From Candidatus Daviesbacteria bacterium GW2011_GWA1_41_61 (lineage in GTDB: Bacteria; Patescibacteriota; Microgenomatia; Daviesbacterales; UBA10151), in contig LCBT01000005.1 in the NCBI GenBank assembly GCA_000997385.1, positions 1 through 59,262 on the forward strand: a DNA stretch of 59,262 bases, read 5' to 3'. Numbering within the stretch: position 1 is the stretch's first letter; each line of letters begins with the position of its first letter. Below, piece by piece: positions 7,326 to 25,623 of the stretch. Both the position numbers and the translations under genes were made by a program. Under the pieces are notes generated by a model, which saw nothing but the letters and a program-made list of their open reading frames with translations, was not told the origin of the DNA and ran no database searches.

Positions 7326-8785
7326 GCCTTACCTCTTTCAGATTCATTAGCCCAACGAGTTCCTTCGCCAAATATTTCTTTACCTAAATCCAGTGACACT
7401 TGTGACTCATGTGACTCTGTTTCTGGTATACCGCTGTCTACTGAAGGGGCTGCTTTATCTGTGCTAGGTATATCTGTTTCAGTGTCAGAAGTGTCATTAG
7501 AGACATTGAAACCATAATTGAGCTTCAATTTCTCTATTAACTCTAGGTTGTAGTAAATTCCTCGTTTGTCTGCCGTCCTTTTCTTTTCAAACCCCAACCC
7601 CTTCAAAATTTTCCCAATGGTATCTTCTGGAAGAGCAAATTTATCTTCCTTACCTTTATTAAACTCTCTAGTAATAGTCTCTACGGATAGGAATCCACCA
7701 TCAACCTGGTTCTCTATGGCTATTACTATCTCAATGATTTTTGCCTCTAGTGTATCTGTAGCATCATCTTTTTTTCGTGACTCAACTGTTTTTAGAAACT
7801 TAAAAAACGATTCTTTTTTGTTGGGGAAAAAGGTAAGCACAATCTTATGAAGGGAGCTTACAATGTCTCCGAGCCTACCTGAAGCTGGTTTGTCCGCCTC
7901 CATTAGTTCATCTTTGTAATGTAAGATCCTAAAAGCTGCGAGCTTACATTTAAGATCAAAGGCACTCTCTGATACAACCGGATTATTAAACCTCCGGCTT
8001 GTTGGTTTCATATCAATTGAGATAGAGCGCGATTCTAAAATGTCATCAACTGGCCTATTAGTAGCAATAATGGTTGGTCCGAAAAGATTAAAAGTTTTAG
8101 TATCTCTAAAAGCTCCTTTTTCAGGCCATAAAGTTCTTGAGGATACAGATCCTTTTTCAAACCTTGCTAAAATAAGATCATCACAATTAGCGCGTTCAAA
8201 CTTTTTAGGAGCATTTTTAACATCAAACCCCAAAGCTGCTTGATGATCGTTACCCCATCTAATTATATCGGCCTCTCTAACAGTTTCTGTCCAAACTCCA
8301 CGCCTGGATACAAAGATTAAACCCTTCCCAGTTCTTGACTTACCACGTTCCTTAACTGCATATAGATACAGAATAGGTGAAAAGTGTATCTTGTCGATTA
8401 GATAGGTGTGAATATCCCATAAAACCAAAAGATCATAGTAAACTTCGTGTGGAAGCTCCGAGATGTTTTGATGGTAGGCAATAAGCTCCTCATATAAATC
8501 TAAAGCATGATGAGGGTTCTCCCTATATTCTTCTAAATATCCCAAAACCTTCTCAGCATCAGCAATTAAATATGGTATCGAGTTAAGAGGTGGCGGTACG
8601 AAGAGTTCATCATTATGTTTTACTGAATCTATCAATTCTAAATTTTCTGTGAGGTAAACTAGCTTTCCTTTACTACTTAAAACATCAATAGTGTTTGGAG
8701 CATCCAGGGAGTATGTTATTTTGTCTTCTTTATTGCTATCTTTTTTGGTTTTTATCTTTTCGTCAATATCGTCAAAATTATCCAT
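7322..8785 (-). CDS. Putative replication ATPase/helicase-like protein (DUF3631-like)
   Basis: P-loop-like KERGKSRTGK, SRSISIDM motif, position downstream of primase. Confidence 0.6.
   Translation of the reverse strand: MDNFDDIDEKIKTKKDSNKEDKITYSLDAPNTIDVLSSKGKLVYLTENLELIDSVKHNDELFVPPPLNSIPYLIADAEKVLGYLEEYRENPHHALDLYEELIAYHQNISELPHEVYYDLLVLWDIHTYLIDKIHFSPILYLYAVKERGKSRTGKGLIFVSRRGVWTETVREADIIRWGNDHQAALGFDVKNAPKKFERANCDDLILARFEKGSVSSRTLWPEKGAFRDTKTFNLFGPTIIATNRPVDDILESRSISIDMKPTSRRFNNPVVSESAFDLKCKLAAFRILHYKDELMEADKPASGRLGDIVSSLHKIVLTFFPNKKESFFKFLKTVESRKKDDATDTLEAKIIEIVIAIENQVDGGFLSVETITREFNKGKEDKFALPEDTIGKILKGLGFEKKRTADKRGIYYNLELIEKLKLNYGFNVSNDTSDTETDIPSTDKAAPSVDSGIPETESHESQVSLDLGKEIFGEGTRWANESERGKA
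7393..7496. repeat. Opposed 9-bp-period repeats, candidate replication origin
   Basis: GTGAC at 7393, 7402, 7411; inverted GTGTCA at 7482, 7491. Confidence 0.45.
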
Positions 8786-9527
8786 TTTTTGTCCTTTCCC
8801 TGGTCAGGAAATTGACTGCACTTTCAAATTTCTGATTGACTTCTTTAGTTACTAGTGGAGGCTGGAAGGTGGAGTTTATAAAGAGCAGGAACTGATAGAC
8901 TAATTTTGATGGGATACCACGAGCCAGTAGGCTACAAGCAGCTCTGTAGAGATTAATATCTCTAGCTCCTTCTGTTTGTCCTAGAATTGACTTCCAATCC
9001 AAATTAGTTGAACCTTTGTTTGTACCCTGAAGATCAATTATCCATTGAGGCATTTCCTGAAATTCATTAACAAATGGTGGAGTGATCCAAATATATTTAT
9101 TGCCTGAGGCGTGAACTGATGGTGGAAGGATTACATAACCGCCATCAGATTTTAGATCAAATCCTTCTTTAACCCCATTCTGGCTATGAATATTAGGGCT
9201 ATATTTATAGAAATGATGTGAACCACCGCCCCCAGTTTGTGATTTAACTGTATCTGTTAGATTATTGGTATTACCACCATGTCTTGGATCAATATCAATC
9301 ACACTAACACCAGATAATTTGCCTGTCACAAGGCCAATATTTGCCCAGGGCCATTTAGTCCACCAATCCGTAACTTCTTCAATTGTAGGTAGTCTTTTTT
9401 GGTATTCAAGCCAAGATTCTAGGCACGGTTTTTTAGAAGATGGACTGATAGGAATTATTGACCAACCTTTTGAAAGGTATTTAAGTGCTGCATTTAATAA
9501 ATCTTTATTTTTATCTTGATTATTCAT
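8778..9527 (-). CDS. Bifunctional primase/polymerase (Prim-Pol) with PriCT-like domain
   Basis: GWSIIPI...KKP, NIGLVTG, VIDIDPRHGG, TGGGGSHHF, GGYVILPPSVHASG. Confidence 0.9.
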   Translation of the reverse strand: MNNQDKNKDLLNAALKYLSKGWSIIPISPSSKKPCLESWLEYQKRLPTIEEVTDWWTKWPWANIGLVTGKLSGVSVIDIDPRHGGNTNNLTDTVKSQTGGGGSHHFYKYSPNIHSQNGVKEGFDLKSDGGYVILPPSVHASGNKYIWITPPFVNEFQEMPQWIIDLQGTNKGSTNLDWKSILGQTEGARDINLYRAACSLLARGIPSKLVYQFLLFINSTFQPPLVTKEVNQKFESAVNFLTRERTKNG

Positions 9528-9529
9528 AT

Positions 9530-9781
9530 TTAACCTCCATAAATTCTACTTTTTAAGAACCTAATTGCCTCCCAAAAAGCATTGGGTTCTGTGCGTAAAC
9601 TCTTTTTCCAGAAATCTTGGATGACTTGATCTAAACCAGGGTTATTAGAACGATCAAATATAAAAACTGACTTTCCGTCTGGGTTTTTAACAACGGAATC
9701 AAGGGAAATTCCAGAGCAAATAATTGCACCAGCTAGGGGTAAACTTGACGTTTCAAATAATGAAGTAACATCTTTTCTCAT
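9530..9781 (-). CDS. DUF5659-like small protein
   Basis: FETSSLPLAGAI...FIF...FW...LKSRIY pattern; paralog of 19561-19791. Confidence 0.7.
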   Translation of the reverse strand: MRKDVTSLFETSSLPLAGAIICSGISLDSVVKNPDGKSVFIFDRSNNPGLDQVIQDFWKKSLRTEPNAFWEAIRFLKSRIYGG

Positions 9782-9917
9782 ATCATTTAATTTTTATAAT
9801 CCGTTACATTGGCTAAGAGCCAAATTCGATATATTTCTAGTTAAATTTTACTAAAGGGATTGTGTATTGTATGTGGCAATGTGGGTATCTATGAAAGTGC
9901 TACACTTTGAATTGATA

Positions 9918-10655
9918 TTATTTCTCCCAGCCTAGATTTCTTAAAATTGAAGAAATATTTGAATACTTTCTATCAATCTCTCTATCAGCTTCTGCATATG
10001 TAATACCAAATTCAGCGGAAATTTTCTCGTAGGTCTTTTTAGAAGTAAGCCCAGTAATTCTTTTGTAACGATATATAGATGCAAAAATCTCAACTTCTCT
10101 CATAGATATATCCTTAATAGTTTCAGGCGCTGGGTCTGATTTTTCGTAATCCTTCATTGCTTCCTCGATTTCGTCCCACTTATCTGATATATACTTGCGT
10201 AGCTCACTTTTGCTGAGCCGTTTGTTAAGTTGAATGATGGGAAGAGCTGGGGTAATGCCTTTGTCTACCAAAGCACGTTTATTTCCTTCATACCATGAAT
10301 CCCAAAACATTTTGTCCTGCAGCCTAGTTGGTGGTGGGACAAGTTTATCATAGTGAAGAAAGCTTCTATTAAGCTGATGTCGTATTCCAAAAATTTGTAT
10401 AGGTTGGTAAACAGAGAAGATTTTCCCAAATTGAATGTATTCCTCCAGTGGGCGGACAAATTTAATGGGAATATGATATTTTTGAAGTAGTGGGATTAAG
10501 GTATCAGGAAATAGTTGTATCTTTTTAGCTTCAAACTGCTTTTTTAAGTCTTCAATTTCGGCTGCGAAATCTTCATAAAATTCTAACAAAAGTAGGTATT
10601 TACGTTCATCCTCACTCAGGTATTTTGCTGCATCGTCACTTATTTTAATCCTCAT
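9918..10655 (-). CDS. Hypothetical protein, possible regulator with C-terminal helix-turn-helix
   Basis: 245-aa ORF upstream of the replication operon; same position as 20001-20618. Confidence 0.55.
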   Translation of the reverse strand: MRIKISDDAAKYLSEDERKYLLLLEFYEDFAAEIEDLKKQFEAKKIQLFPDTLIPLLQKYHIPIKFVRPLEEYIQFGKIFSVYQPIQIFGIRHQLNRSFLHYDKLVPPPTRLQDKMFWDSWYEGNKRALVDKGITPALPIIQLNKRLSKSELRKYISDKWDEIEEAMKDYEKSDPAPETIKDISMREVEIFASIYRYKRITGLTSKKTYEKISAEFGITYAEADREIDRKYSNISSILRNLGWEK

Positions 10656-10732
10656 TTTTATATTAATTTATGGCTAATTATACTCTTTATTAGGGTGGTG
10701 GAAAACTCTTAAATTAGCTTCAAAAATGCTAA

Positions 10733-11479
10733 TTACTGGTATTTAAACTGGAAAGGTTGAACGAGAGGTTCTGAGAAAGGAATAGTTATGCTTACAGCAG
10801 GTACAGATAAGGAAACGAAATCCGTCTCAGCGCAAACCACTGTCTCAGACGAAGGTTCCCACCGAAGTATACTAGTTATGTCTCTTTCGCTTGGAGTCTC
10901 AGTCGGGGAGGTAGTGTAGTAATCTCCGAATTTAGAAGATTGAACATAATCAGACTTAGGCGTAAGATATGGCGTACCGGTACAGTCAGAAGTAGTGAAC
11001 CCGAGACTTGCTTTTGCAACTTCCCAGTGTTGAATATCTATAAATTTGTTGATACTGGGGACAAAGATTGTATTATTACCTTCCGATCCTTTATCTACTA
11101 AAATCCCCAGTTCGTTATTATGGGCATCAAGGACCATTATTGATTTAGACGATTGTACAGGGATATTCTCTAGCTTGTTATTTAAATCGATAATCTCTGC
11201 TGTCTGAGTTGCTACAATTGACTCTAAGTCTCTAACTTTATCATTCGTAGCTAATAAACCTTGGTCTAGTTCTGCTACTTTATCAAACAGATAGCAATTA
11301 ATAGCGTCTGATCTAGATACATTTCTTCTTAAACAATTACGCTGATAATATTCAGTCGCTTTCTGTAAAAATGTACTACTTACTGCTAAGACTGTGGGGC
11401 TCAAAACTACTAATACAAACAATGGTAGTAAAAATAGAGGTAGAATCTTAATTTTAATTCTCATTATATCTGCTTTCAA
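10733..11479 (-). CDS. Secreted/membrane-anchored hypothetical protein with coiled coil
   Basis: N-terminal hydrophobic signal, heptad segment, Cys pairs. Confidence 0.7.
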   Translation of the reverse strand: MKADIMRIKIKILPLFLLPLFVLVVLSPTVLAVSSTFLQKATEYYQRNCLRRNVSRSDAINCYLFDKVAELDQGLLATNDKVRDLESIVATQTAEIIDLNNKLENIPVQSSKSIMVLDAHNNELGILVDKGSEGNNTIFVPSINKFIDIQHWEVAKASLGFTTSDCTGTPYLTPKSDYVQSSKFGDYYTTSPTETPSERDITSILRWEPSSETVVCAETDFVSLSVPAVSITIPFSEPLVQPFQFKYQ

Positions 11480-11611
11480 AAATTTTACTTTTCAGAAAGC
11501 CTTAATCTGATCAACATCATAAAACTTTTTGCTATAGGGGACAAGTAGTTTTTATGTACATCTATATTATCTCAAGCCTTACCTGATCTAAATTCCTATC
11601 TGCTTTTTTAA

Positions 11612-12307
11612 TTAAACTTTTGTTTCATCATTACTTACAGGTATAGGGGGAGCAAAAAGCTCAGGAAGTGCGGGGAAATCATAGTTTTCTTCAGAGCATT
11701 TGGATGATGGAACCTGTACAAAACTGTATATCCAGTCCGATCTTCCTTTTTCTCTTTCCCAAACACTATCATATTTATCTTCTGCTTCCTTGCTTCTTGC
11801 AACTGCTTCCATTACCCTATTGCTTAACTCTCGTTGTTCATCAGGATCTTTTTCTTTGTATTCTGTAGACAAAAAGACTGAAGACTCATAATCTGCCTTA
11901 TACATTTCATATTGATATTGACCCGCCTCCTTGATATATGAATGTATTAATAAGTTAAAGGCTTTGCTATCTAAATATATTCTTTGTTTATCAAGCCACA
12001 ACTTTTCTTCTTTTTGGTAAACATCACTTGCTTGCATGTATTTATCCAGAGCAGCATGATATTCTTCCGCAGTAGCTGTATCACTTCCTGCTTTTAATAT
12101 TAAATTGTATTGATCCAAATATTTATTTTTTCTATCAATTATTAAAGGATTAATTTTTATACAATGCTCATCTGCTAAATAGGATCCCTCGTTAATCAAT
12201 TGTTGATATTTGTATATATAACCTACAAATAACCCAAGACCTAATATTATTGAAATAATGAGAAGCTTCTTTTTAATAGCTTTATTCATTTTCAGGAAGT
12301 AGCTCAT
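11612..12307 (-). CDS. Membrane-anchored hypothetical protein
   Basis: N-terminal TM helix, helical body. Confidence 0.7.
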   Translation of the reverse strand: MSYFLKMNKAIKKKLLIISIILGLGLFVGYIYKYQQLINEGSYLADEHCIKINPLIIDRKNKYLDQYNLILKAGSDTATAEEYHAALDKYMQASDVYQKEEKLWLDKQRIYLDSKAFNLLIHSYIKEAGQYQYEMYKADYESSVFLSTEYKEKDPDEQRELSNRVMEAVARSKEAEDKYDSVWEREKGRSDWIYSFVQVPSSKCSEENYDFPALPELFAPPIPVSNDETKV

Positions 12308-12956
12308 ATAATGCAGGAGTAATTACAACAAATATATGGCCAGGTATTCCAAACACAGGTGTTTTATCATAGGTATACGAAACCTCAACATTTTTCCCAT
12401 TAATTATTTTTTGGTGTCGTGTTCCTGAGGTACTCTCAAATTCCAAAGATTGTTCTATAAACCAACTTGTAATATCTTTGTCTACAGTGTCCGTCAGTTG
12501 GAACATTTGCCGTAACGTATCATTATTTTTTTCTCCATCAGCATAAAGATCGCCAGTAAAACTGATTTGCGTTAAATTCTTCCCCGGCTGCCCTATTAGA
12601 TAAACTGTGACCGTATCAACCTCTCCTCTTTCTACATCCTGACTTTTATCTTCAGGATAATATTTATCAATATCCGAATTAAAAACTACACCTATATTTT
12701 GGGACTGTAACCTATCCTTTAAGGATTGCATTGTAATGCTTAAATCTAGAGTTTTAGTAGCGACTTGAGGTGAAGATAGAGGAGTCTGAGCCTGAGTATC
12801 GATCTGCTGTAAGATAGTTGAGCTTTGAGGTGAAGGTTCAGATCTCACTAAATAATATACTCCAATTATGATCGCGAATATAATAATGACTAATATAGGA
12901 ACAATTCTTTTTTGATCGCGAAACGTTTTTCTATTCATTTTATTTACTTCTTCCAT
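12282..12956 (-). CDS. Membrane-anchored hypothetical protein
   Basis: N-terminal TM helix followed by S/Q/P linker. Confidence 0.7.
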   Translation of the reverse strand: MEEVNKMNRKTFRDQKRIVPILVIIIFAIIIGVYYLVRSEPSPQSSTILQQIDTQAQTPLSSPQVATKTLDLSITMQSLKDRLQSQNIGVVFNSDIDKYYPEDKSQDVERGEVDTVTVYLIGQPGKNLTQISFTGDLYADGEKNNDTLRQMFQLTDTVDKDITSWFIEQSLEFESTSGTRHQKIINGKNVEVSYTYDKTPVFGIPGHIFVVITPALYELLPENE

Positions 12957-12977
12957 ATCATTTATTTTCCCCCTTTT

Positions 12978-13610
12978 CTATAAGCTAGAACAGAATGGTT
13001 TACTACAAAAATTATTAGGTTTAGAACAATACTGATATTTTCTTCCCTCTAATAAACAATTGTTATATTCTCCAAGTTCAGTATTGTATTTACCTATACA
13101 AGAATTATATTCAGTCATTTCCTTCTGACATTCCTGTTGTTCTTCCGACCTTCTTCGTTGTCTATCTTGTTCAAAGGTATCAGTTGTTGTACCTGTTTGT
13201 TGCTCATAATAGCTATTTTGAATTGGCTGTCCTTCTTGTGCCATGATTTTTTGCACACGAGCTTCTTGGTCAGCCATAAGGGCTGGATCTGCATCTAACT
13301 TGAACGCCATTAACCTGATGAATTCCACATTAGTCATATCTACATTTCCCAATCTCTTTTTTGCCTCTATCAATACATCTTTAGAGGTTCTGGCAACTCC
13401 AAAAGCGACTATTTTTAAGGCTTTTCCAGATGGTTGGTTTTGGTTATCTGTAGGCACATTTGTATCTGGGCTGACAATAGACTCATTAACTTCAGATTTA
13501 GTAGGAACCACACCACTAGACATATCTTCCGAGGATTCACTATATCCTCCAAGATATATACCAGTGAGAACAACTACTCCTATAATTACCAAAACTGGAG
13601 TCATTTTCAT
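12978..13610 (-). CDS. Membrane-anchored protein with Cys-rich C-terminus
   Basis: N-terminal TM; EYNxC and CSKP repeats. Confidence 0.7.
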   Translation of the reverse strand: MKMTPVLVIIGVVVLTGIYLGGYSESSEDMSSGVVPTKSEVNESIVSPDTNVPTDNQNQPSGKALKIVAFGVARTSKDVLIEAKKRLGNVDMTNVEFIRLMAFKLDADPALMADQEARVQKIMAQEGQPIQNSYYEQQTGTTTDTFEQDRQRRRSEEQQECQKEMTEYNSCIGKYNTELGEYNNCLLEGRKYQYCSKPNNFCSKPFCSSL

Positions 13611-13940
13611 TTAATTTCCTTTCATAAGGTCTGTAATATCCTTTTTAAGCTGTGTTAATTGTTCTTCAGTGAGATTATCTTCTGTCTCTTTTATTATATC
13701 CTGAGTTTCTTCATCCTTAACTTTAAGTTTCCTTTGAAGACTGATTAACTTAACCTCGTTACTGACATGAAATACTCTAATTAATTTTCTAAGAAAGTTT
13801 ACAGCTACATCAATCTTAAAGACGATTAACAGATAGGCATAAATTAAGAAGATTTTTAGATCCCAGTTAATTAGAATAATTGCGATTATTAACTCTAAAA
13901 GATAGTTCCACCATGATTTTTTTAAAATTTCGCCAAACAT
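13611..13940 (-). CDS. Small membrane protein
   Basis: Two hydrophobic helices plus charged tail. Confidence 0.65.
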   Translation of the reverse strand: MFGEILKKSWWNYLLELIIAIILINWDLKIFLIYAYLLIVFKIDVAVNFLRKLIRVFHVSNEVKLISLQRKLKVKDEETQDIIKETEDNLTEEQLTQLKKDITDLMKGN

Positions 13941-14043
13941 AATTATATTTCCATCTCTAAATCTAATTGCATTCTATACCTGATCAATAAAGATGACAAG
14001 GAGTCTGTCGAGATGATACTGATGGTCTCTTATAGTGTGAGTT

Positions 14044-14271
14044 ATGGGAAAAGCTATTACTCACAAACAAGTATTAGAGAAATTTGGACAGAAGATGCAG
14101 AAGGTGCGTCAATCCTCTGGGGTAACACAAGAAGAATTAGCGGCTAGGTTAGGGATGCATAGAACCTATATTGGCCTTATAGAACGAGGCGAGAGAAACC
14201 CAACTATAAGAACTTTATATAAGATTGCAAAAGCCCTTAAAGTTCCAGCTTCAGATTTGCTACCTTTTTAA
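14044..14271 (+). CDS. XRE-family HTH regulator (controller-protein-like)
   Basis: TQEELAARLGMHRTYIGLIERGERNPT. Confidence 0.92.
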   Translation: MGKAITHKQVLEKFGQKMQKVRQSSGVTQEELAARLGMHRTYIGLIERGERNPTIRTLYKIAKALKVPASDLLPF

Positions 14272-14961
14272 CTAATAGGAACCCCCAGGTATTAATGTTG
14301 GTATTTGTTCTCGTTTTACCCTGATTCGTTTGACTGTTGAGGCACTTACCCTCTTCATACTCCTATGTGTCCTTAAAACAACCCCAAACTTGCTTAGAGC
14401 CTTGCATTCTTGGTCAATATTAATCTTGTATGATTTAACTTCTGGCCATAACTGTGCAACTATGTAGTTATTTTGGAGTGGATCTATATTCCCTACTATC
14501 CAAACCGAAGCGATATTAGGCTTTACAGCCTCAATTTGTTTATTTAAATCGCTTAAGTCCTTTATTGCTTCATCTCTGTTAATCAATCCTACTAAACTTG
14601 TCTTCGGATCATAGACCTTATCTTTTAACTTACGTTTGACAGTATCTGCAATACTTTCTTTTTTGCGATCTTCTATCCGGTATACCTCAACTAACTGAAT
14701 GTTTTTAACTCCAACCTGTTTACTGTTAAGAGACATCGTAGCAGCTAATATATCAGGTGGATCTTCATCTGGCACCTGCAACCACCACATTCTGCCCTCG
14801 TAATGTTTCACACCCAATAAAGCTATTCCTGTTATATAAGCTTCAAGCCCCTTCTTTTTATTAAATGCTTTTTCAACCCCAATCTGTTGAATCAGTTGCT
14901 TGAAGTTATATATTGCGTAGCAAGGTGAGTACCAAATATTTTTTGTTATATCAATATCCAT
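14272..14961 (-). CDS. Hypothetical protein, possible PD-(D/E)xK-like nuclease
   Basis: DPPDIL...QLVEV motif; convergent with the XRE gene. Confidence 0.5.
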   Translation of the reverse strand: MDIDITKNIWYSPCYAIYNFKQLIQQIGVEKAFNKKKGLEAYITGIALLGVKHYEGRMWWLQVPDEDPPDILAATMSLNSKQVGVKNIQLVEVYRIEDRKKESIADTVKRKLKDKVYDPKTSLVGLINRDEAIKDLSDLNKQIEAVKPNIASVWIVGNIDPLQNNYIVAQLWPEVKSYKINIDQECKALSKFGVVLRTHRSMKRVSASTVKRIRVKREQIPTLIPGGSY

Positions 14962-15014
14962 AATTAAATTTTGGAAGTGAAGTATTTGAACACGCGCTAT
15001 ATAAGGGGATTATA

Positions 15015-15380
15015 TCAAAGGGTTTCAATCATACCTTTAAATCTTTGCTTTCTGTATTTTAGTTTTAGACAATTCCTACATCCCAAAATATTTTGTAACG
15101 GGTGTTTATAAAGCGTCCCTACCTTTATTTGGCATATCGGGCACAAGAACCAGAATCTATCGCCATTAAATCTGGTTTTAGAGGTGGTAAGGCTCACCTC
15201 AATCCCTAGAGCCTCAATTTTGGCTCGTAGAAGCCTTATTTTGAGCTCTTTCTTAACGCGGTCTACTAATTCATCGATATTGATTCTCATGGCGTTATCT
15301 GCCAACTGAGAATCTCCTAAATCGTATGGGTTTATTAAATTATTCATGGCTGTTTGCTTGTACCATTTGGTTTTGGCCAA
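15015..15380 (-). CDS. Zinc-finger protein of mobile elements
   Basis: RFWFLCPIC...LY...CRNC...Y. Confidence 0.65.
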   Translation of the reverse strand: MAKTKWYKQTAMNNLINPYDLGDSQLADNAMRINIDELVDRVKKELKIRLLRAKIEALGIEVSLTTSKTRFNGDRFWFLCPICQIKVGTLYKHPLQNILGCRNCLKLKYRKQRFKGMIETL

Positions 15381-15930
15381 TAATAGCTGTGTCTGTTTTG
15401 ATATTTAATTGCATAGGTATTTGTTTCATGGCTTTTAGTGCCTGAATTGAGGTTAAATACTGCCTGTTTGCCCGATCCAGCTCCTTGCTCAAAAAGGCTA
15501 GGAATCTTATACCCATATCTGTAATTGAAGCCGGTGCTAAGTATCTATTAATCCGGCTTTGAATCTCTAAAGTTCGGATATAATTGACTGTGGCTAGTTC
15601 AGCCGTAGCTTTCTCGCTGGTAGTTTCACAAAGATACTCTTTTTGTAACTGCCTCATCATATCTACTCCAAAAGTTTTATAACTCTCTGATATAATTTTA
15701 GTCATCAGAATTCCGTTTTCGAACTCAAAAAGCGTTAATGCCTGAAATGCGTTATCTATATCGATTGTAGCTAATTTATTACTTTTATTATTTATAGACT
15801 CTTCATATACTTTTTGTAGAACAGTGTCTGGATCATTCCAAATTTTACATTTACTGAAAGCATCTCTAAGTTCCTCTGAAGTTTTTGTTTTAACAATCGT
15901 TTTACTGTTTATTTTAGGCTTAGTAGGCAT
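15340..15930 (-). CDS. Hypothetical element protein
   Basis: 196-aa ORF overlapping the next gene; its start overlaps the stop of the orphan integrase tail. Confidence 0.65.
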   Translation of the reverse strand: MPTKPKINSKTIVKTKTSEELRDAFSKCKIWNDPDTVLQKVYEESINNKSNKLATIDIDNAFQALTLFEFENGILMTKIISESYKTFGVDMMRQLQKEYLCETTSEKATAELATVNYIRTLEIQSRINRYLAPASITDMGIRFLAFLSKELDRANRQYLTSIQALKAMKQIPMQLNIKTDTAIIGQNQMVQANSHE

Positions 15931-16042
15931 AACCAGCTTCCTTTAAGCTAGTAACGTTTATGTGGTTTCTAAGAAGTTCTAATTGTGCTGCTAGAGTTTT
16001 TGCTTCCTCTGAGGTATCATTTAGAAGGTTTTGGAGTCCGAC
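15920..16042 (-). other. Displaced 3' end of the element 1 integrase gene (40 codons + stop)
   Basis: In frame with GGG ATT CGA core; reads VGLQNLLNDTSEEAKTLAAQLELLRNHINVTSLKEAGYAY*. Confidence 0.7.
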
Positions 16043-16062
16043 TCGAATCCCCTCTCCCGCTC
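16043..16062 (+). repeat. attR, tRNA 3'-end fragment
   Basis: TCGAATCCCCTCTCCCGCTC versus TCGAATCCCGCCTCCGGCTC at 5447-5466. Confidence 0.75.
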
Positions 16063-16080
16063 TGGTAAAATATTAAACAT

Positions 16081-16152
16081 GCCGAAGTAGCTCAGTGGCA
16101 GAGCACGTTCTTGGTAAGAACGGGGTCACGGGTCCGATCCCCGTCTTCGGCT
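16081..16152 (+). tRNA. tRNA-Thr(GGT)
   Basis: Acceptor GCCGAAG/CTTCGGC; anticodon arm CGTTC-TTGGTAA-GAACG. Confidence 0.93.
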
Positions 16153-16201
16153 CAGGTTAAAACCTTGCATCTCTTCCCCACCTAATATATAATCCCAAGG
16201 T

Positions 16202-16372
16202 ATGGCTAAAAAAGGAAACAGGCAAATATTTCATTTAGAGTGCTCTGCTTGCAAAAGCAGAAATTATGTAGTGCAAAAAAATGTTATTAATACTAAAGAT
16301 AAGTTAGCTTTTAAAAAATACTGTAAAAAGTGCCGAAAAATCACCCTCCACAACGAGACTAAGATTAAATAA
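16202..16372 (+). CDS. rpmG: 50S ribosomal protein L33 (zinc-binding type)
   Basis: Manual translation MAKKGNRQIFHLECSACKSRNY...KKYCKKCRKITLHNETKIK; below the ORF-track length cutoff. Confidence 0.95.
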   Translation: MAKKGNRQIFHLECSACKSRNYVVQKNVINTKDKLAFKKYCKKCRKITLHNETKIK

Positions 16373-16580: not shown

Positions 16581-16654
16581 AGGGGCGTCGGTCAGTGGTA
16601 GGCCTGGAGTCTCCAAAACTCCTAACGAGGGTTCGATTCCTTCCGCCCCTGCCA
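16581..16654 (+). tRNA. tRNA-Trp(CCA), integration site of element 2
   Basis: Acceptor AGGGGCG/CGCCCCT; anticodon arm GGAGT-CTCCAAA-ACTCC; 3' GCCA. Confidence 0.95.
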
Positions 16655-18148
16655 ATTCTCACTTTCAGCATACTTGGCTACTATGCTGAATGGTAGTTTG
16701 AGGCTAAAATCAACCTTTTTATCCTTCAAAATAAGGTTCGAGACGACAAATCTCAGCAACTCCCTTTGTAACTCAGGTCTCGAACTGGCAAATAACTTCG
16801 GAGCCATATTGCAGAAGGTCAGAAATCCTTCTATTTCCTGCTTATATACCCTATCTGCAGTCTTGTGCTTCATTATTTCAGCATTTACGAGTTCGGTTTC
16901 CTTGTTGACCTCTGTTGATTTTGAATTGTAGGCTTCGTCTTTGATCTTTCCTTTGAGATATAAGTCCAACAGCTTTGAGGATTGCTCCTGTAGGTCTTTG
17001 TACTGACTGTTGAGAGCATCCAGCGAGTCTTGAAGGTATTCAGTTTCGTCTGCCAAGCTCACACTCATAATGTCTTTTATAGTTTTCAACTTTTTTAGAT
17101 CAAGCGAGGCTGCTTTGATTACCTTTGCTAATTGTTCTGTTATAACTTCCTCCCTCACATACTTCTGATGGCAGAATTGAGCCCCTCTGGGCTTGGTACA
17201 GTGATAATAAACATGACCCTTCTGCAATTCAGCAGTAACTCCGTTATGGCACTCACCACATTCCATAAGTCCAACAAATGAGAAATCGTGTTTATACCCT
17301 TTCTTCTTTTTCGGAGACAAGACCTCCTGCACTTTATCAAATAAGTCCTTTTCAATAATTGGTTCATGTTTTCCTGGTTTCACTTCGCCTTTCCATTCAA
17401 AAAATCCATAGTAAAAATGGGTGTGAAGAATCTTACCTATGGCTGACTTTCCAACTCGATTACCTTTTCGACTTCTGAAACCCTCATCAAAAAGCATCAA
17501 TCCGATTTTCCTTTCCGAGTATTCACCTGTAGCACAGAGCTCAAAGATTCTTTTGATAAAAGGTGCAACTACTGGATCAGGTACTGCTACATGGTCATCC
17601 AGCTTCGTTTTATAACCAATCGGAGGTATGTGGGGGTAGAAACCATCATCCACCAAAATATCATAAGCTTTTTTGACTTCATCAGAGAGATTGTTTAGAT
17701 AGAACCTGGCAAAACCATTTTGGATATCAAACTGTAGCTTTTGGAAACTCTTGGCGTTCTTGTTATAAACCAAAGATTCTTTGATGAAATGTATTTCTCT
17801 GCCTTCATTGTTCACCATATCCTCAATAATCACCCTATCTTTGAGATTGCCTCTCAAAAGTCTGTCCACTTTCTCACACAAGATTCCGAGGATGTTTTTG
17901 TTAGCCTGGATATAAGCCACCATTTCAGAAAACTTTTTTCGACCTTCTTTTTTTGCACTTTCATCAATATCAAACTCTTTGATTACTTCAAAATTATTTC
18001 GCTTGGCATAATCAAGGATTAGCTTCCTTTGGGCTTCAATGGAGACACCTTCTTCACGCTGGCGTTTACTGGAGACTCGATAATAAGCAACAAATTGATT
18101 TGCATTTTCCATATTCATCTTATCTGATTTTAGTAGATTAGTTGTCAT
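16622..18148 (-). CDS. Large serine recombinase; C-terminus encoded antisense to tRNA-Trp
   Basis: YYRVSS, VDRLLR, CGEC...YYHC zinc ribbon; ends WQGRKESNPR. Confidence 0.93.
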   Translation of the reverse strand: MTTNLLKSDKMNMENANQFVAYYRVSSKRQREEGVSIEAQRKLILDYAKRNNFEVIKEFDIDESAKKEGRKKFSEMVAYIQANKNILGILCEKVDRLLRGNLKDRVIIEDMVNNEGREIHFIKESLVYNKNAKSFQKLQFDIQNGFARFYLNNLSDEVKKAYDILVDDGFYPHIPPIGYKTKLDDHVAVPDPVVAPFIKRIFELCATGEYSERKIGLMLFDEGFRSRKGNRVGKSAIGKILHTHFYYGFFEWKGEVKPGKHEPIIEKDLFDKVQEVLSPKKKKGYKHDFSFVGLMECGECHNGVTAELQKGHVYYHCTKPRGAQFCHQKYVREEVITEQLAKVIKAASLDLKKLKTIKDIMSVSLADETEYLQDSLDALNSQYKDLQEQSSKLLDLYLKGKIKDEAYNSKSTEVNKETELVNAEIMKHKTADRVYKQEIEGFLTFCNMAPKLFASSRPELQRELLRFVVSNLILKDKKVDFSLKLPFSIVAKYAESENWQGRKESNPR

Positions 18149-18151
18149 AGT

Positions 18152-18691
18152 TCAAGGCGACTTCTTTATATCTCGAAACAAATCTTTTCTCATTGCTTTC
18201 CATGCATCAGACTTGACTAAATCACCATACTTTTTCCCTATCTCTTGGAGAATGTGCATCCAATAATTCGAATGCATCTCCTCATCCTTGAATACTTCAA
18301 AACGATCAAGATTCAGAGCTCCTTTTGCTTCCCTGTCGAGCTCTGCTATCTGTTCCTTGATTTTTTGTGTGCTTTCAAGCAGTTTGAAAGCTGAATCAGG
18401 ATCAAACTTCTCGGCTTCCACACCAAAAATCTGTCCAAACATATCGTTATAAAAAGTAATTGCGGTATCAGCTCGAATGATGATATAGCCTGAATACAGC
18501 ATTAGTTTTCGGAGGAATAAAGAAATAAGCTTATCAACTTCTTTCTTTGTCTCATTTGGCAGTTGCCTCCTCATCTCTTCAACCAAATCGAAATTACCTT
18601 GAGAAAACGCTTCTACAGCAGCCCTGAAAGCTTCATCAGCAGTCATATTTGCGAATGGTTCATTTAGATTCATTTTTGATTTTGTATGCAT
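18152..18691 (-). CDS. Hypothetical helical protein
   Basis: 179-aa ORF in operon with the recombinase. Confidence 0.6.
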   Translation of the reverse strand: MHTKSKMNLNEPFANMTADEAFRAAVEAFSQGNFDLVEEMRRQLPNETKKEVDKLISLFLRKLMLYSGYIIIRADTAITFYNDMFGQIFGVEAEKFDPDSAFKLLESTQKIKEQIAELDREAKGALNLDRFEVFKDEEMHSNYWMHILQEIGKKYGDLVKSDAWKAMRKDLFRDIKKSP

Positions 18692-19031
18692 ATTCCAATA
18701 CCTCCAATCTTTTTGCTAAATCACTCTGCTCAATAGTTTTGAGTGCGATACCCGATAAGTAACCTATTGCAGTTGCCAGTTTAGTGCTGGTTTTATTTCT
18801 TCGTAGGTCGTTTATGGTCTGTTCTATCAGTTTCAATACATCTTGCGTATTTGAGATTGCTATTTCATCATCCCTTCCATAGCTTCGTTTGGGGCTTTTA
18901 CCACCATCATGTACTGCTTGGGTTCGTTTCTCTCGCATCTTTTCAGAATGCCAGAAACAAAAGCTATCAGCTTGGATCGCCTTGGCTTTGCACCGCTTTT
19001 TATCTGTTTTTATAAAGTTGCATTGATTCAT
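18660..19031 (-). CDS. C3H zinc-knuckle protein (HGGxSTG-like)
   Basis: QCNFIKTDKKRCKAKA...FCFWH...GG. Confidence 0.6.
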   Translation of the reverse strand: MNQCNFIKTDKKRCKAKAIQADSFCFWHSEKMREKRTQAVHDGGKSPKRSYGRDDEIAISNTQDVLKLIEQTINDLRRNKTSTKLATAIGYLSGIALKTIEQSDLAKRLEVLEYAYKIKNESK

Positions 19032-19290
19032 AGTTACATAAGCTAATGGGTGTACCTCCTAATAACTGCTTGTTGAGATAGCCCACCCTTCCTAAAGGTT
19101 TCATCCGCACATGTTTCCGTTTTCTCTCGGTATGCGTTAGCTCATTACCTGTTCCAAACTGCTCCTTTCGGTCAGAAGGGAGGCTCTCGTAATGCGTCAA
19201 GAATAACCCCCACATTTTTCTGTGTCTGCTTTATAGAGACCATTGTTTCCATAGCTCAATGGTAAGCAGTACACCCAAACAGTTAGTTAT

Positions 19291-19548
19291 TTAGCCTCGC
19301 TCCTGTTTATTCCCACGAGTTTTCAATAATTGAGATATTCTATCTTTATAAGCCAATCGTTTTTGGAATGCCTCTTTGGTGTAAATAGCCACCTCCCAAT
19401 CACCAAGTAATTGACTAAATTGCTTTATAAGTACAAAGCCATTGATTTCTTTTTCCTGGTACTGATTTTTTGGGTCAAAAAAGGACAGGAGAAATAATCG
19501 TCTAATCTTATTTAGCCAATTTTGGCTGTGAGTATGTTTCATTTTCAT
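19291..19548 (-). CDS. Hypothetical protein
   Basis: 85-aa ORF in same-strand operon. Confidence 0.55.
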   Translation of the reverse strand: MKMKHTHSQNWLNKIRRLFLLSFFDPKNQYQEKEINGFVLIKQFSQLLGDWEVAIYTKEAFQKRLAYKDRISQLLKTRGNKQERG

Positions 19549-19560
19549 ATCAATTTTTTG

Positions 19561-19791
19561 TTATTTGCTGGCAAATATCCTGTCTTTCAAGGTACGAATT
19601 GCATCTGCATATTCCCTGGCTTTGACAGTCAAAGTATTAGACCAGTAGTCATTAGATATTTTGCGACAGGCTGTCTCACTTTCAAATACAAACCAATAGA
19701 AACCAGAATCAGCTTCCAATCCAGCAATTGTGAGATTCGCAGCTACCAAAGCAGATGCTTCGTAAATGTCTTTGGTTTTATACCTTTCCAT
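19561..19791 (-). CDS. DUF5659-like small protein
   Basis: YKTKDIYEASAL...FVF...YW...LKDRIF; paralog of 9530-9781. Confidence 0.7.
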   Translation of the reverse strand: MERYKTKDIYEASALVAANLTIAGLEADSGFYWFVFESETACRKISNDYWSNTLTVKAREYADAIRTLKDRIFASK

Positions 19792-19960
19792 AAGTCACAG
19801 CCTCCTTTTTCATTTTGTTGAGAACTTTTAGAAATCCAGACAAGTTGAAGTATGCTTCAAAAGCTTGAGAGTCAGTCAAAGGCTGCTTCGAAAGAAGTTC
19901 GAGTTCTTTTTGGAGATTTTCCTTACATCTTTGGCTCAATTTCCGATCCATATGAGCCAA
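19778..19960 (-). CDS. Small hypothetical protein
   Basis: LTDSQAFEAYFNLSGFLKVL resembles LSDEVARDQGSRLIQLFEL of 7047-7325. Confidence 0.55.
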   Translation of the reverse strand: MAHMDRKLSQRCKENLQKELELLSKQPLTDSQAFEAYFNLSGFLKVLNKMKKEAVTYGKV

Positions 19961-20000
19961 GTGTAGAAAAATAGGGGTTGAGAAACGAAGGAGAGAAAAA

Positions 20001-20618
20001 CTACCCTTTTTTATCCCTGGACATGTGGAGTTTCTTTTTCACTAACCTACATCGCTTACTGATTTCAGTCTCATCAAATGGTCTGTTTCCGTAAATCGTT
20101 TCTCCGATTTCTCGCATACTTTTTCCCTGGTTATAAAGTTCTATCATCCGAATATCTGTGTCAGAGATTTCAATGGGCTCAAAATCTTTCAACCATCTGG
20201 ACTGCAATTCTTTTATCAGATTCCAATCTGCTCTTTCTAAATCTTTGGCAGTAGTTTTTCTAAAAATCTGAATAAAAAGCTCCCATTTTTGTTTTTCGAA
20301 GTTGTATGAAAGTATTGGTTGTAAGGAAGAAATCGCTGGCAATTGCAATTTACCTGATTTCAGAAGATTGCGAATTGGCTCCTCCCAGTTCGCGGGCAAA
20401 TTACATTCATTTACAATTCGCTTCGGTTCATGAATAAGTAATCTTTCTTTGACACCAAAATTACGAATCACCATTTTCTTATCTTTAGTTACAATCACTT
20501 CTGATTCATATTTCTGAATCTTTTTCAGAACCTTTTTACACTCTGATAATAATCTCTCGCTGTGCTCAAGAATAAAATGGGTTTTTATTTCGGTAACTGA
20601 ACTTTTTGCATTTTTCAT
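20001..20618 (-). CDS. Hypothetical regulator with C-terminal HTH
   Basis: MIELYNQGKSMREIGETI...ISKR. Confidence 0.6.
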   Translation of the reverse strand: MKNAKSSVTEIKTHFILEHSERLLSECKKVLKKIQKYESEVIVTKDKKMVIRNFGVKERLLIHEPKRIVNECNLPANWEEPIRNLLKSGKLQLPAISSLQPILSYNFEKQKWELFIQIFRKTTAKDLERADWNLIKELQSRWLKDFEPIEISDTDIRMIELYNQGKSMREIGETIYGNRPFDETEISKRCRLVKKKLHMSRDKKG

Positions 20619-20720
20619 ATCAATCTACATCTGTGCTCAATTGTACCAAAAAGAAGCCATAAACCTATAACTTTGGTCTGGTAATTGAGTTATAATAAGG
20701 CTGAAATTGAGATGTAAATT

Positions 20721-22343
20721 ATGACGAACAACACAGATAAACAAAAGGACAATACTACTTCCTCATCTCCTGTTATTACCGAAACTAACCTTGCACAGTT
20801 AGCCAGAGGATTGCTTCTGATGAATATCCAAAAGGAAATGGATGAACCAGGATACACTCCAATTGATAGAATCACGAAAAACCGCAAAGTTGTACAAAGA
20901 CGACAAGAGTACTGTAGCGATATTGAGCGGGTAATTAGCGAGGCGAAGCTTACAATCCATCTCCAATTAGAAGTTCAGAATGAAGTAAAAGTTGGTGAAA
21001 AGTCATACCAACCAGAGGAAATAATAAGTTACTATAATGGGATTTTCCTTGACCAAGTTCATCAGTTGAAAGATAAGCTTTTCAGAATGATTGCACTCCT
21101 GCTTTTAGTACCTGAAACAGCACAAGACAATCAAAAGAAAGACCCTAAAAAGATCGAATATCAGCCATTTCTAACTAAAAACGAAGTGAAACTGAAAGAG
21201 ATTGGTATTTACGACTTACTATCTCAATGGGGCTCTGGCAATCTTGCAAAGGCATTAGATAAGAGAACCTATCATCATCATTTTGTAAGTACATTACGAC
21301 TAAATAGTGACTTCCAAAACATAAAAATGTCCAGGATGATGCTCAACCCACTAACTTCAAATCAGTTGAGCGAATATGGTAAGAAGAGAATGGCGGAGAT
21401 TGGTGAAGAATCTTATAGAAAATGGAGAAAAGAACTCGTAGATAAGCAGCAAGAAATAATCGGTGAAATAGAACAAAACATTGAAGAGATTTCAGAAAAA
21501 CTTATCACCCATTTCAAAGTCCCTGCAACTCCTGTTGAATCTGCACCCATAATCAGTAAGTACATGGAGTTTTTGGCCTCTATGGACATACATAATGAAG
21601 CAAGTATAACCAAGATTCCTACTGACCTGAAACCATTGATAGACGGATTCCTCGAAATTGCTGAAAAAGAAATTGGTGGCACACTTCATCTTCCGTATTC
21701 AGTTTATCTTGTTGGAAGCTGTGCACGAGGAGAGTATATTCCTGGCTGCTCTGACATAAACCTTTATTTTATTTTCGATGCTGATACAAATACGAATCTT
21801 TCAAAGAGCAATCCACTCGTAAATCTTGTTTTTCTATCAAAGAAACAATATCAGTCTAACGCCCACAAAAAGGATCGTTTCATTTGTTGGTCTGATGGTG
21901 TCCTACTCCATGGCAATGGTTTCAAAATGGGAAAGAAGGACTTTCCTAAACCAGGATCACTGCTGTGCCTACTCCTGAACAAGGGGTTTATCGAAAAGCT
22001 TGAGCAGATCAGGAAAGAAGTTGCAGCATTGAAGAATCAAGACCCTGATACTTTGAGGCAGTACAGTGTAAAAATGGTCAAAATTATGCTGGATTTTGAT
22101 TTTGGGGTTGCAATGTCTAATAAACCTTTCTACACCGCAAGCAGGAAAGGTAAAATCGCCTACACCAAGGAATCATGGCCGAATGAACGCAGAACAAACA
22201 CTTTTGAGCAGATTTACTATAAAGGAATCATTCGGCAAGAGGATTTTCCAATGGTAATTGACACCTTCCTTGAAAATGCGAAGAAAAACTATCAGAAACT
22301 ACTTGATGTTGAGGCAGATATTATCAAAAATCCAGCTCGATAA
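20721..22343 (+). CDS. Putative HEPN (Cthe_2314-like) plus nucleotidyltransferase fusion protein
   Basis: RX4H motif RTYHHH; VYLVGSCARGEYIPGCSDIN Pol-beta NTase motif. Confidence 0.6.
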   Translation: MTNNTDKQKDNTTSSSPVITETNLAQLARGLLLMNIQKEMDEPGYTPIDRITKNRKVVQRRQEYCSDIERVISEAKLTIHLQLEVQNEVKVGEKSYQPEEIISYYNGIFLDQVHQLKDKLFRMIALLLLVPETAQDNQKKDPKKIEYQPFLTKNEVKLKEIGIYDLLSQWGSGNLAKALDKRTYHHHFVSTLRLNSDFQNIKMSRMMLNPLTSNQLSEYGKKRMAEIGEESYRKWRKELVDKQQEIIGEIEQNIEEISEKLITHFKVPATPVESAPIISKYMEFLASMDIHNEASITKIPTDLKPLIDGFLEIAEKEIGGTLHLPYSVYLVGSCARGEYIPGCSDINLYFIFDADTNTNLSKSNPLVNLVFLSKKQYQSNAHKKDRFICWSDGVLLHGNGFKMGKKDFPKPGSLLCLLLNKGFIEKLEQIRKEVAALKNQDPDTLRQYSVKMVKIMLDFDFGVAMSNKPFYTASRKGKIAYTKESWPNERRTNTFEQIYYKGIIRQEDFPMVIDTFLENAKKNYQKLLDVEADIIKNPAR

Positions 22344-22345
22344 TC

Positions 22346-22861
22346 TTACTTTTTGACTCTGTAGTGTAATTCAACAATTCCATCGTCAATTTTCTCAACT
22401 TTCATCAATTCCAGCTTGAGCTCGAAATCAGAAAGACTGAATACTGGGATTCCTTCCCCTAAAATTGAGGGGTTCACATCAAATATAACCTCGTTTATCA
22501 AACCTCTTTTTGCAAACTCGCTGTTCAGGGTTGACCCGCCTGTAATAATTGCCTCGTTGAAACCTTCTGATTCGAGAGTTTCAAGAGCTTGTTCTGGTGA
22601 GTTTGCCAATGTAAAACCATTTTTGAGATCAAGATTAGAGGTTGAAACTATAATCTTCTTCACACCTTCAAGTTCAGTGAGATAATCTCCTTCCCACTTG
22701 ATAACTGCCTCATAGGTCTTTCTACCCCAAATAAAACAACCAATCCTTTTAGCCAAACTTACGAATTGTATCCAGTTTGTATGTGACAAGAAATCTTCAC
22801 TACCAGATTTAGAAGCAATAATTCCATTCGCTGAAACTGCCATAGTTAGAATAATTTTCAT
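22346..22861 (-). CDS. Dihydrofolate reductase / RibD C-terminal family protein
   Basis: AVSANGIIA, GRKTYE, GGSTL, PSILGEGIPVF. Confidence 0.88.
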   Translation of the reverse strand: MKIILTMAVSANGIIASKSGSEDFLSHTNWIQFVSLAKRIGCFIWGRKTYEAVIKWEGDYLTELEGVKKIIVSTSNLDLKNGFTLANSPEQALETLESEGFNEAIITGGSTLNSEFAKRGLINEVIFDVNPSILGEGIPVFSLSDFELKLELMKVEKIDDGIVELHYRVKK

Positions 22862-23187
22862 AATTCTTCTTCTGAAATAAGAGGGTAAATGTCAAAAGCC
22901 ACTTCTTCATAAGGATGGACTTTCCTAATTGCTGCGATAACTGCCTTTGCTTTTTTTTGATCGCTAACACATTCAATCCGTTCTTCTTGTACTTGTTCAA
23001 ACTTACCAATTTCGCCAATAGCTGGATGAGCACCTTCCATTGGCTTATATCTGCCTATTCCATCAACTGAATAGCTACAGTGACTGTAAAGCCCAATTTT
23101 CCCTGCCCCTGCGCCTCCTATTGCCTGACGAACTATATCAGTATGAGTTTTAGGTACAAAAACAACAATTTTTACAGTTTTATTCAT
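22858..23187 (-). CDS. Stand-alone NIF3/YqfO PII-like domain protein
   Basis: KIVVFVP, GAGKIGLYSHCS, HPYEEVAFDIYP. Confidence 0.85.
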   Translation of the reverse strand: MNKTVKIVVFVPKTHTDIVRQAIGGAGAGKIGLYSHCSYSVDGIGRYKPMEGAHPAIGEIGKFEQVQEERIECVSDQKKAKAVIAAIRKVHPYEEVAFDIYPLISEEEL

Positions 23188-23567: not shown

Positions 23568-23636
23568 AATTCATATTGTATCAAAACCTAAAGACTTGAG
23601 CGAGACTTTATTGACAATAATTGATACAATCAAATC

Positions 23637-23978: not shown

Positions 23979-24074
23979 AAGCTAACGCTTGTGGAGGATT
24001 GAGAAATTGTTGAAGTCTCTGAAGATCAAACTGGCTGATTTTGTGCCAAATTGTTCGAAGGTCATGCACTAATG
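23968..24074 (-). other. Displaced 3' end of the element 2 integrase gene (35 codons + stop)
   Basis: In frame with the att core (AAT TGG CAG G); reads ALVHDLRTIWHKISQFDLQRLQQFLNPPQALAFRI*. Confidence 0.75.
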
Positions 24075-24082
24075 CCTGCCAA

Positions 24083-24793: not shown

Positions 24794-24837
24794 TGAAGCT
24801 ATACAAGCAAAAACTTTCGGAAACCAAGAAATGTAGA

Positions 24838-25554: not shown

Positions 25555-25623
25555 AGATTTATCATAACATGTTCATTCTAATTTATTATTAAATTCTAAG
25601 TTTTGATATAATTTCTTGATTAT

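Follow-up and report, generated by a model that had tools for sequence, protein, structure and literature searches.

The 59,262-base stretch analyzed here (hereafter the window) is a whole contig, LCBT01000005.1, of Candidatus Daviesbacteria bacterium GW2011_GWA1_41_61, whose genome comprises 1.06 Mb on 7 contigs. Positions 5466-16062 are a 10.6-kb integrative element (element 1) with a Prim-Pol replication module, residing in a Microgenomates-type genome of the Candidate Phyla Radiation (CPR), and this element was put in by its own large serine recombinase at the extreme 3' end of a tRNA-Thr(TGT) gene. The recombinase frame contains the attachment site, with 45 codons left before the stop. 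In circular form, the element must encode an enzyme of 575 amino acids (aa) that ends in a conserved helical tail, and the integrated copy encodes an enzyme of 548 aa with an 18-residue end read from antisense tRNA. Overall, an integrative element with its attachment site in the integrase frame, a switch between integrase isoforms, and downstream genes coupled to the same joint is, taken as a whole, probably the best explanation of the data.

The Integrase Gene and Its Two 3' Ends

The open reading frame (ORF) at 5404-7050 (- strand) encodes an N-terminal catalytic Resolvase domain (PF00239, E 5.6e-21, residues 15-158), a Recombinase domain (PF07508, 22.1 bits against a cut-off of 21.1; 1.8e-4), and a Zn_ribbon_recom domain (PF13408, 37.5 bits against a cut-off of 25.3; 3e-9), and is therefore a large serine recombinase. 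All of these Pfam domains lie N-terminal of residue 530, and the catalytic parts stay together after integration. The last 18 codons (5404-5460 with the stop) are an antisense reading of tRNA-Thr(TGT), in agreement with the initial annotation, which was made from the sequence and had described the integrase end as tRNA-derived in the integrated state.

At the opposite end of the element, a - strand frame is open from 16066 to 15923 and reads TRAGEGIRVGLQNLLNDTSEEAKTLAAQLELLRNHINVTSLKEAGYAY before its stop. This stop (15920-15922) falls in the first codons of a 196-aa ORF (ATG 15930-15928), and the overlap that had been claimed between an open tail frame and the start of this gene is thus present on the - strand. 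Joining both element ends computationally gives a single ORF of 575 codons, in which the conserved 45-codon tail with its stop (15920-16058, - strand) serves as the C-terminus of the integrase; it does so only once the ends are joined. On integration, the 45 tail codons are exchanged for 18 antisense-tRNA codons. The initial annotation had given a 40-codon tail, that is, 13 aa for 40; the exchange is 18 aa for 45, since the core has moved (see below). The openness of the frame weighs little in favor of this reading: only one of the three frames of the 136-nucleotide (nt) tail segment is open and 5.1% of 20000 shuffles are open in frame; openness alone is therefore weak evidence, and the case for the tail is carried by its conservation.

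Conservation of the Tail and of the Split Design

With the 48-aa tail frame as query, a phmmer search of 1.84 billion cluster representatives yielded 26 matches at E <= 1e-3 (best 9.9e-13), which are 55-79% identical to the query and all 43-84 aa long. Their alignment gives a consensus of ~31 residues, with conserved leucines in a ...QLELL... segment, after which the ends vary. The N-termini are mutually unrelated, with no conserved start codon, so that the matches appear "headless." By count, 17 of the 26 have the [F/L/S]-G-A-G context of integrase C-termini, and 6 have R-A-G, as at the integrated junction of the window. These matches show that the tail is conserved in many related elements and lacks a start codon of its own, and the conservation on which the initial annotation had staked its reading is clearly there, in 26 counterparts. 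In one of them, P0131 (77 aa), ~37 N-terminal residues match the C-terminus of the integrase homolog P0117 and are followed by the tail; the contiguous form therefore exists in real DNA. In addition, the related locus L018 begins within a tail homolog (16 of 23 residues identical), the stop of which overlaps the ATG of a 196-aa homolog, and ends at an integrase C-terminus just before the core.

The split design itself is well supported as a family-wide feature. In a 20-row alignment of integrases (21 of 23 homologs were taken, two shorter ones of 353 and 425 aa being left out), every homolog that extends this far has a conserved C-terminal block closed by the invariant pair G529-A530, beyond which the sequences part into peptides of the kind that different antisense tRNAs encode. 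Among eight related loci that adjoin a tRNA gene, of which L032 and L033 are the same sequence and L030 has a truncated integrase, the integrase frame enters the antisense tRNA by 20-69 nt in seven, and a repeat of the tRNA end was found in none of the eight.

A third recombinase of the same genome (int3, contig C3) runs 20 nt into antisense tRNA-Pro. The element to which it belongs, of ~3.1 kb, lies at tRNA-Pro(TGG) (G000 contig C3:257060-260310; L042:161-3411), and its right end begins with a tRNA-Pro-like arm that has gained 2-nt and 5-nt insertions; the next ~100 nt are homologous to the integrase's own 3' end. Together they form a contiguous fossil resembling the attachment site of an unintegrated element (attP). 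This arrangement suggests a past tandem insertion followed by a deletion. A - strand frame there leads from an integrase remnant (10 of 21 residues identical to int3 504-524, E 3e-4) straight into a 47-codon tail, and the stop of this tail overlaps the next ATG with the same geometry as in element 1. The initial annotation had counted two independent elements of this design, the second of them at tRNA-Trp (16581-16654, called by ARAGORN). There, the second serine recombinase (int2, 16622-18148), which is 25% identical to that of element 1 (int1), runs 33 nt into antisense tRNA-Trp, and the right end of the element was not found by exact, mismatch, or gapped searches. The third element, on another contig, displays the layout. 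No similarity was found between elements 1 and 2 in their 196-aa and 179-aa proteins, nor in their 121-aa and 123-aa proteins.

A different explanation for this conservation is that the split gene is a by-product of a compact genome: the attachment site would overlap a dispensable 3' end of the integrase gene, both isoforms would act alike, and the tail would be kept for reasons at the DNA level, namely as an arm of attP and as the leader, with ribosome-binding site, of the 196-aa gene. In its first part, the tail does overlap the attP arm, AAGGAAG stands 8 nt before the ATG (seen by eye), the tail end after ...NHL is variable, and elements persist despite the arbitrary, tRNA-encoded ends of their integrases. 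However, conservation extends over ~31 codons, well past a 25-base-pair (bp) half-site, with conservative replacements and synonymous changes. Between L018 and the window, the differences over 23 aligned codons are distributed 7:3:12 among codon positions 1, 2, and 3, with 7 synonymous changes; with 23 codons this is a small sample. On this evidence, together with the predicted docking described below, we consider the by-product explanation unlikely.

The Insertion Site and the Position of the Crossover

Element 1 is flanked by two host genes called by ARAGORN, tRNA-Thr(TGT) (5393-5467, + strand), the 3' part of which forms the left arm of the host attachment site (attB), and tRNA-Thr(GGT) (16081-16153, + strand). 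In five of 11 same-family loci taken for comparison (L006, L007, L010, L011, and L013), tRNA-Thr(TGT) lies directly upstream of tRNA-Thr(GGT) without interruption, and spacers between the paired genes in relatives range from a few bases to ~150. Because the pair is adjacent in relatives, the ~10.6 kb between both tRNAs in the window is an insertion. A conserved host leader (TGGTAAAAT...) together with tRNA-Thr(GGT) occupies 16063-16153 (+ strand), and the matches of relatives start at window position 16063 (query position 21). The gene for tRNA-Thr(TGT) stays whole after the insertion, being neither cut nor duplicated. Homologs with source names come from Microgenomates (Levybacteria, Roizmanbacteria, Daviesbacteria, and Woesebacteria).

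The crossover can be placed, by inference from Logan contigs of public runs, mainly run X1, within a 4-nt core, GCTC, present at 5462-5465 in the left junction (attL) and at 16059-16062 in the right junction (attR). In run X1, a single contig of 10,601 nt spans exactly 5462-16062 at a depth of 62.2, host flank contigs have depths of 47.7 and 48.2, with the right one beginning at 16059, and two junction contigs of 56 nt each cover 5436-5491 (depth 33.8) and 16033-16088 (depth 26.7). A contig of run X9 also ends at 16062, and the left copy of GCTC coincides with the family break point; in runs X7 and X14, coverage is too thin to bear on the junctions. Logan contigs are presumably built with words of 31 letters, in which case four shared bases leave 26 private words, hence junction contigs of 56 nt and a core of GCTC. 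The contig boundaries show only these four shared bases.

The initial annotation had taken TCGAATCCC as the crossover core. This sequence does occur just at both ends of the element (only at 5446-5454 and 16043-16051), but the X1 contig ends, the Gly-type arm described next, and the related metagenome contig L041 argue otherwise, and the contig boundaries and the family break point give GCTC. Joining at TCGAATCCC rather than at GCTC changes the product by one residue, and the main point of the initial annotation therefore survives the shift of the core.

The segment 16043-16062 was also considered as a displaced 3' end of tRNA-Thr and rejected, because it is part of the element contig and has an acceptor strand of the Gly type. 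This acceptor strand would pair with GCG... as in tRNA-Gly, whereas the tRNA-Thr genes seen here and in relatives all start with GCC..., and of the 14 bases after the loop, 13 match tRNA-Gly(TCC) of this genome and 11 match tRNA-Thr(TGT) (by eye). The segment is therefore element DNA and an arm of attP; the left arm as a whole (16031-16058, + strand, inside the element contig) has, by eye, the look of the 3' half of a Gly-type tRNA. In L041, an integrase 69% identical to that of element 1 runs into antisense tRNA-Gly(TCC), and window 16031-16062 corresponds by eye to the 3' part of this tRNA-Gly(TCC) plus 5 extra bases. In passages describing the attachment sites of large serine integrases, the distal motif is placed 5 bp further out in attP than in attB (PMC3783163), and the 5 extra bases, in what is a by-eye match, recall this rule.

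Dyad symmetry in the rebuilt sites is at the level of shuffles and gives no guide to the center, with 11-12 of 24 positions matching compared with a shuffle mean of 11.6; a TTTGGAG/CTCCAAA dyad noticed by eye is accordingly given no weight. Joints at 5449->16087 (X1) and 5433->16075 (X9 and X14) were considered as the empty site of this strain and rejected, because they stem from related organisms (8 other letters, and an extra base). The junction alignment in L032 was uninformative.

Several observations concern the insertion locus itself. Several other genera keep the 18 nt that separate the element end from tRNA-Thr(GGT) (16063-16080; TGGTAAAATATTAAACAT), and these look like an extended -10 promoter for tRNA-Thr(GGT). 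Partial copies of 5' or 3' parts of tRNA-Thr(GGT) lie between tRNA-Thr genes at L013:1281-1573 and L014:1342-1574, and in this family the tRNA-Thr pair has the appearance of a hot spot for repeated insertion.

Evidence for Recent Mobility

The contigs of run X1 break exactly at both element ends, with the element deeper than the flanks and the flanks deeper than the junctions. Breaks on both sides of the junction contigs imply that, in X1, the ends of the element and the host flanks also continue into other sequences, and the depths fit a mixture of integrated copies, empty sites, and extra copies of the element. In addition, the 90% cluster of the integrase contains the 548-aa form on 8 contigs and a 534-aa form (P0095 and P0119) on 7 contigs, the longest of 59,423 nt. 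Over 530 residues, the 534-aa form matches the 548-aa form exactly, and only its last four residues depart from it, which indicates that this element also occurs at a second junction. These data show recent mobility with exact ends.

Viewed against this evidence, it is highly improbable that element 1 is a fixed, immobile remnant in which the tRNA-encoded end is the integrase's only C-terminus and the tail a relic in decay. Such an explanation could appeal to the circle junction, which was not seen directly, and to the decay in the third element and in L018, where integrase remnants and frameshifts occur. It is opposed by the ORFs of element 1, all of which are intact, by the identical integrase with two different junctions, and by the contig breaks and the excess depth of the element.

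A free circle is what the mechanism would necessarily require, and several points weigh against this step. The circle junction is present in no contig or read displayed, although the joined sequence itself was not queried, and the graph branches in X1 could be due to the second-site copy (534-aa form) and an empty-site strain rather than to circles. No 575-aa protein was found in the 90% cluster of the integrase, and a word-based search for long proteins with the tail gave none. The last two are weak negatives, because elements are mostly assembled in the integrated state and the library shows one member per cluster. Viral contigs contained no integrase relative; metagenome contigs contained one, in the integrated form.

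Predicted Docking of the Tail

An AlphaFold2 model of the 548-aa integrase (mean predicted local distance difference test score, pLDDT, of 72.6) places zinc-ribbon strands at 292-323, followed by coiled-coil helices at 371-403 and 409-431 and further helices at 434-450, 452-471, and 488-503; residues 505-548 are disordered, which is what the by-product explanation would expect of a dispensable end. When integrase residues 285-530 were modeled as a complex with the tail, the score was 0.73 (runs 0.73, 0.02, and 0.74), compared with 0.05 for the best of three controls. Docking runs showed contact agreement of at least 6% and a partner pLDDT of at least 41, and the docking mark is reached by 58 of 80 solved complexes and by 2 of 110 mismatched pairs. 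A docking model that passes its controls argues against isoforms that act alike. Two points limit this support: one of the three runs scored 0.02, and the docking used alignments made for this analysis, for which the calibration holds only roughly.

The tail is predicted to contact integrase residues 362-369, 437-470, and 487-500, that is, helices flanking the base of the coiled coil. Directionality factors bind near the coiled-coil base of large serine integrases, and in the SPbeta integrase a helix of the factor lies packed between the hinge region and the second DNA-binding domain, as described in passages of PMC11722253. Because the predicted contacts fall at the directionality-factor site, we infer that the tail is a tethered helix there. 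A flexible linker of ~26 residues would let this helix fold back onto the coiled-coil base and the second DNA-binding domain. The two isoforms could then differ in the reaction that they favor, integration or excision, or in their response to a directionality factor, and, in effect, the enzyme would be informed of the state of the DNA that encodes it. In its most specific form, the proposal is that the tail is a built-in directionality module, with the integrase made from the circle locked in one reaction, the enzyme of the integrated copy released for the other, and the same junction gating three downstream genes. This form is a tentative possibility and somewhat doubtful.

Downstream Genes and a Possible Operon Switch

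From 13940 down to the integrase, the - strand of element 1 carries an array of ORFs that abut or overlap. It includes a Prim-Pol primase with a PriCT_1 domain (8778-9527; Pfam 1.9e-33 and 1.1e-7), a 487-aa ORF (7322-8785) with a 59%-identical homolog in L037, and a 92-aa ORF (7047-7325) that overlaps the integrase start and is kept upstream of the 69%-identical integrase in L041. Near the other end of the element, also on the - strand, lie the 196-aa gene (15340-15930), a 121-aa Cys-rich, zinc-finger-like ORF (15015-15380) that is its conserved partner and has no Pfam family above threshold, and a 229-aa ORF (14272-14961) with no family match, which would be the final gene of the array as rejoined in the circle. 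The initial annotation had this order right (primase, 487-aa ORF, 92-aa ORF, and integrase, then the 196-aa and Cys-rich ORFs across the junction); its description of the 487-aa ORF as "helicase-like" found no family match. Circularization would extend this array across the tail frame to include the 196-aa, 121-aa, and 229-aa ORFs; it would then terminate at 14272, opposite the end of a regulatory gene. These three genes would be transcribed and translationally coupled with the replication and integrase array only in the circle, and the tail stop overlapping the 196-aa start would be the point of coupling.

The family of the 196-aa protein, which is widespread in Microgenomates, bears on this proposal. 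It has 92 homologs, and in the 25 related loci examined a homolog of the 121-aa protein was found beside the 196-aa homolog (tblastn, E <= 1e-3). Of 24 loci with a called start, 14 have the first codon of the 196-aa homolog at -4 to +10 nt from where an upstream frame stops; in L020, L027, and L038, this upstream frame is a ~700-aa ORF, which matches Prim-Pol in L020 and L027. The arrangement that the initial annotation had proposed to look for, with a full-length recombinase immediately before a 196-aa homolog, was found in 0 of the 25 loci, which is as expected if all are integrated.

The alternative is that there is no operon switch, the 196-aa, 121-aa, and 229-aa genes having their own promoter in or near 15931-16080 and being expressed in both states, with the overlap incidental. 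The 196-aa gene has AAGGAAG as its own Shine-Dalgarno-like sequence (by eye), and TTGTCAAG-like sequences lie upstream of 196-aa homologs in L034, L036, and L040 (by eye). Nevertheless, no promoter-like, sigma-70-like site was found on the - strand at 15931-16262, the ATG/stop overlap is kept in L018 and in the third element, and the 196-aa homologs usually abut an upstream frame. Taking both sides together, we regard independent expression of the three genes as possible but somewhat unlikely.

Against the switch itself stand further points. The promoter scan is weak evidence, being crude and not tuned to the phylum (4 sites found compared with 3.8 expected), and 0 RNA runs contain the stretch. 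In relatives such as L020 and L027, the pair of 196-aa and zinc-finger-like genes lies just upstream of the integrase, so that integration does not disconnect it there, and the operon effect is no rule of the family. The claim that integration disconnects two genes from the replication transcript fits the - strand anatomy of element 1 and does not hold in these relatives. On the arrangement of the genes, a switch on the downstream genes is plausible, and its effect on the integrase protein may equal or exceed that on the operon.

Five relatives have a different conserved frame, 51-62 codons long, immediately before the 196-aa homolog or overlapping it (L019:67-243, L025:9747-9935, L034:9841-9996, L036:9694-9852, and L040:9806-9985). 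It lacks an ATG, has a motif like ...LPxPRKERII.ERD..GRIV.S..P..., and may be a small gene of its own or the final part of some other gene upstream.

Other Features of the Element and Its Surroundings

The regulatory gene mentioned above encodes a Cro/CI-type helix-turn-helix (HTH) regulator (14044-14271; Pfam HTH_3 6.8e-19). It is the sole + strand gene of the element, diverges from the - strand array, and lies far from both element ends; attP is in the integrase gene and not in this regulator gene.

The AlphaFold2 model of the 196-aa protein is all-helical (pLDDT 73.6). The protein has no Pfam or PHROG match, and PHROGs gave 0 matches for ten element proteins. A fold search of the model against the PDB gave nothing at E <= 0.001; the best compact match, a weak one, was the HK97 small terminase (E 0.64, prob 0.96, TMt 0.60). 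The 133-aa protein of the third element matches Terminase_2 at E 0.17 only, and hhalign found no relation between it and the 196-aa family. An integrase and a Prim-Pol primase without capsid genes, together with the terminase likeness, are weak hints of a satellite-like element similar to phage-inducible chromosomal islands (PICI-like).

The stretch between tRNA-Trp and secE/nusG in the window measures ~16 kb (16581-32805), and in relatives secE/nusG closely follow tRNA-Trp. The insertion at tRNA-Trp holds DUF5659, a Cys-rich ORF, a nucleotidyltransferase, glycosyl hydrolases, a sigma factor, and a second PBP1-like gene. The 59-kb contig has two class-A penicillin-binding-protein genes with transglycosylase and transpeptidase domains (2967-5201 and 30010-32325), one of which falls within the tRNA-Trp to secE stretch.

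Comparison With Known Systems

What makes a large serine integrase integrate or excise is under active study, and the enzymes serve as tools for genome engineering. If the predicted docking is real, a C-terminal helix swapped by recombination itself would be a new kind of directionality control, in which the direction of a large serine integrase would be set by the state of its coding DNA. The system would also be a documented case of active integrative elements, with their ends known exactly, in CPR bacteria, which have been little studied. In a search of open full-text papers, supplements excepted, no serine integrase gene was found described as containing its own attachment site, nor was such a case found for CPR bacteria.

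Known directionality factors offer a first point of comparison: the tail is likewise a short helical element, predicted at the coiled-coil base and the second DNA-binding domain, where passages of PMC11722253 locate such factors. The known factors are separate proteins, whereas here the helix is in the integrase chain and is present in one DNA state only. In mycobacteriophages (BPs and others), integration-dependent immunity is described, in passages of PMC8092301 and PMC4557955, as a consequence of attP lying in the repressor gene, so that integration shortens the C-terminus of the repressor and changes its behavior, and some of the attachment sites overlap tRNA 3' ends. Element 1 has in common with these phages an attP inside a gene and a C-terminus changed by integration; as far as these passages describe the phages, a repressor is split there by a tyrosine-type integrase, and here the serine integrase itself is split. 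Integrases of the archaeal SSV1 type have their gene partitioned into two large parts by integration into a tRNA gene. In element 1, unlike in this type, the catalytic and DNA-binding domains remain intact and only the last 45 codons are exchanged.

The closest likenesses are to two other systems. The attP of myxophage Mx8 (intP/intX) lies inside the integrase coding sequence, and integration creates a new 3' end and an altered enzyme, as recounted in passages of PMC6070905; an attP inside the integrase ORF and a new C-terminus on integration are thus found in both. However, the Mx8 enzyme is a tyrosine recombinase and that of element 1 a large serine recombinase, and here the exchanged part is a conserved helix predicted to dock at the coiled-coil base, with the downstream genes putatively coupled. 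In Tn916, the distal genes are promoterless when integrated and are transcribed across the joined ends only after circularization, according to passages of PMC11658703. In element 1, distal genes would likewise be reached across joined ends. In Tn916, again as those passages have it, a promoter and an antiterminator RNA are read across the joint, whereas here an ORF crosses the joint and its stop overlaps the next start. The design of element 1 therefore combines two known ideas, the attP in the integrase gene of Mx8 and the expression across joined ends of Tn916.

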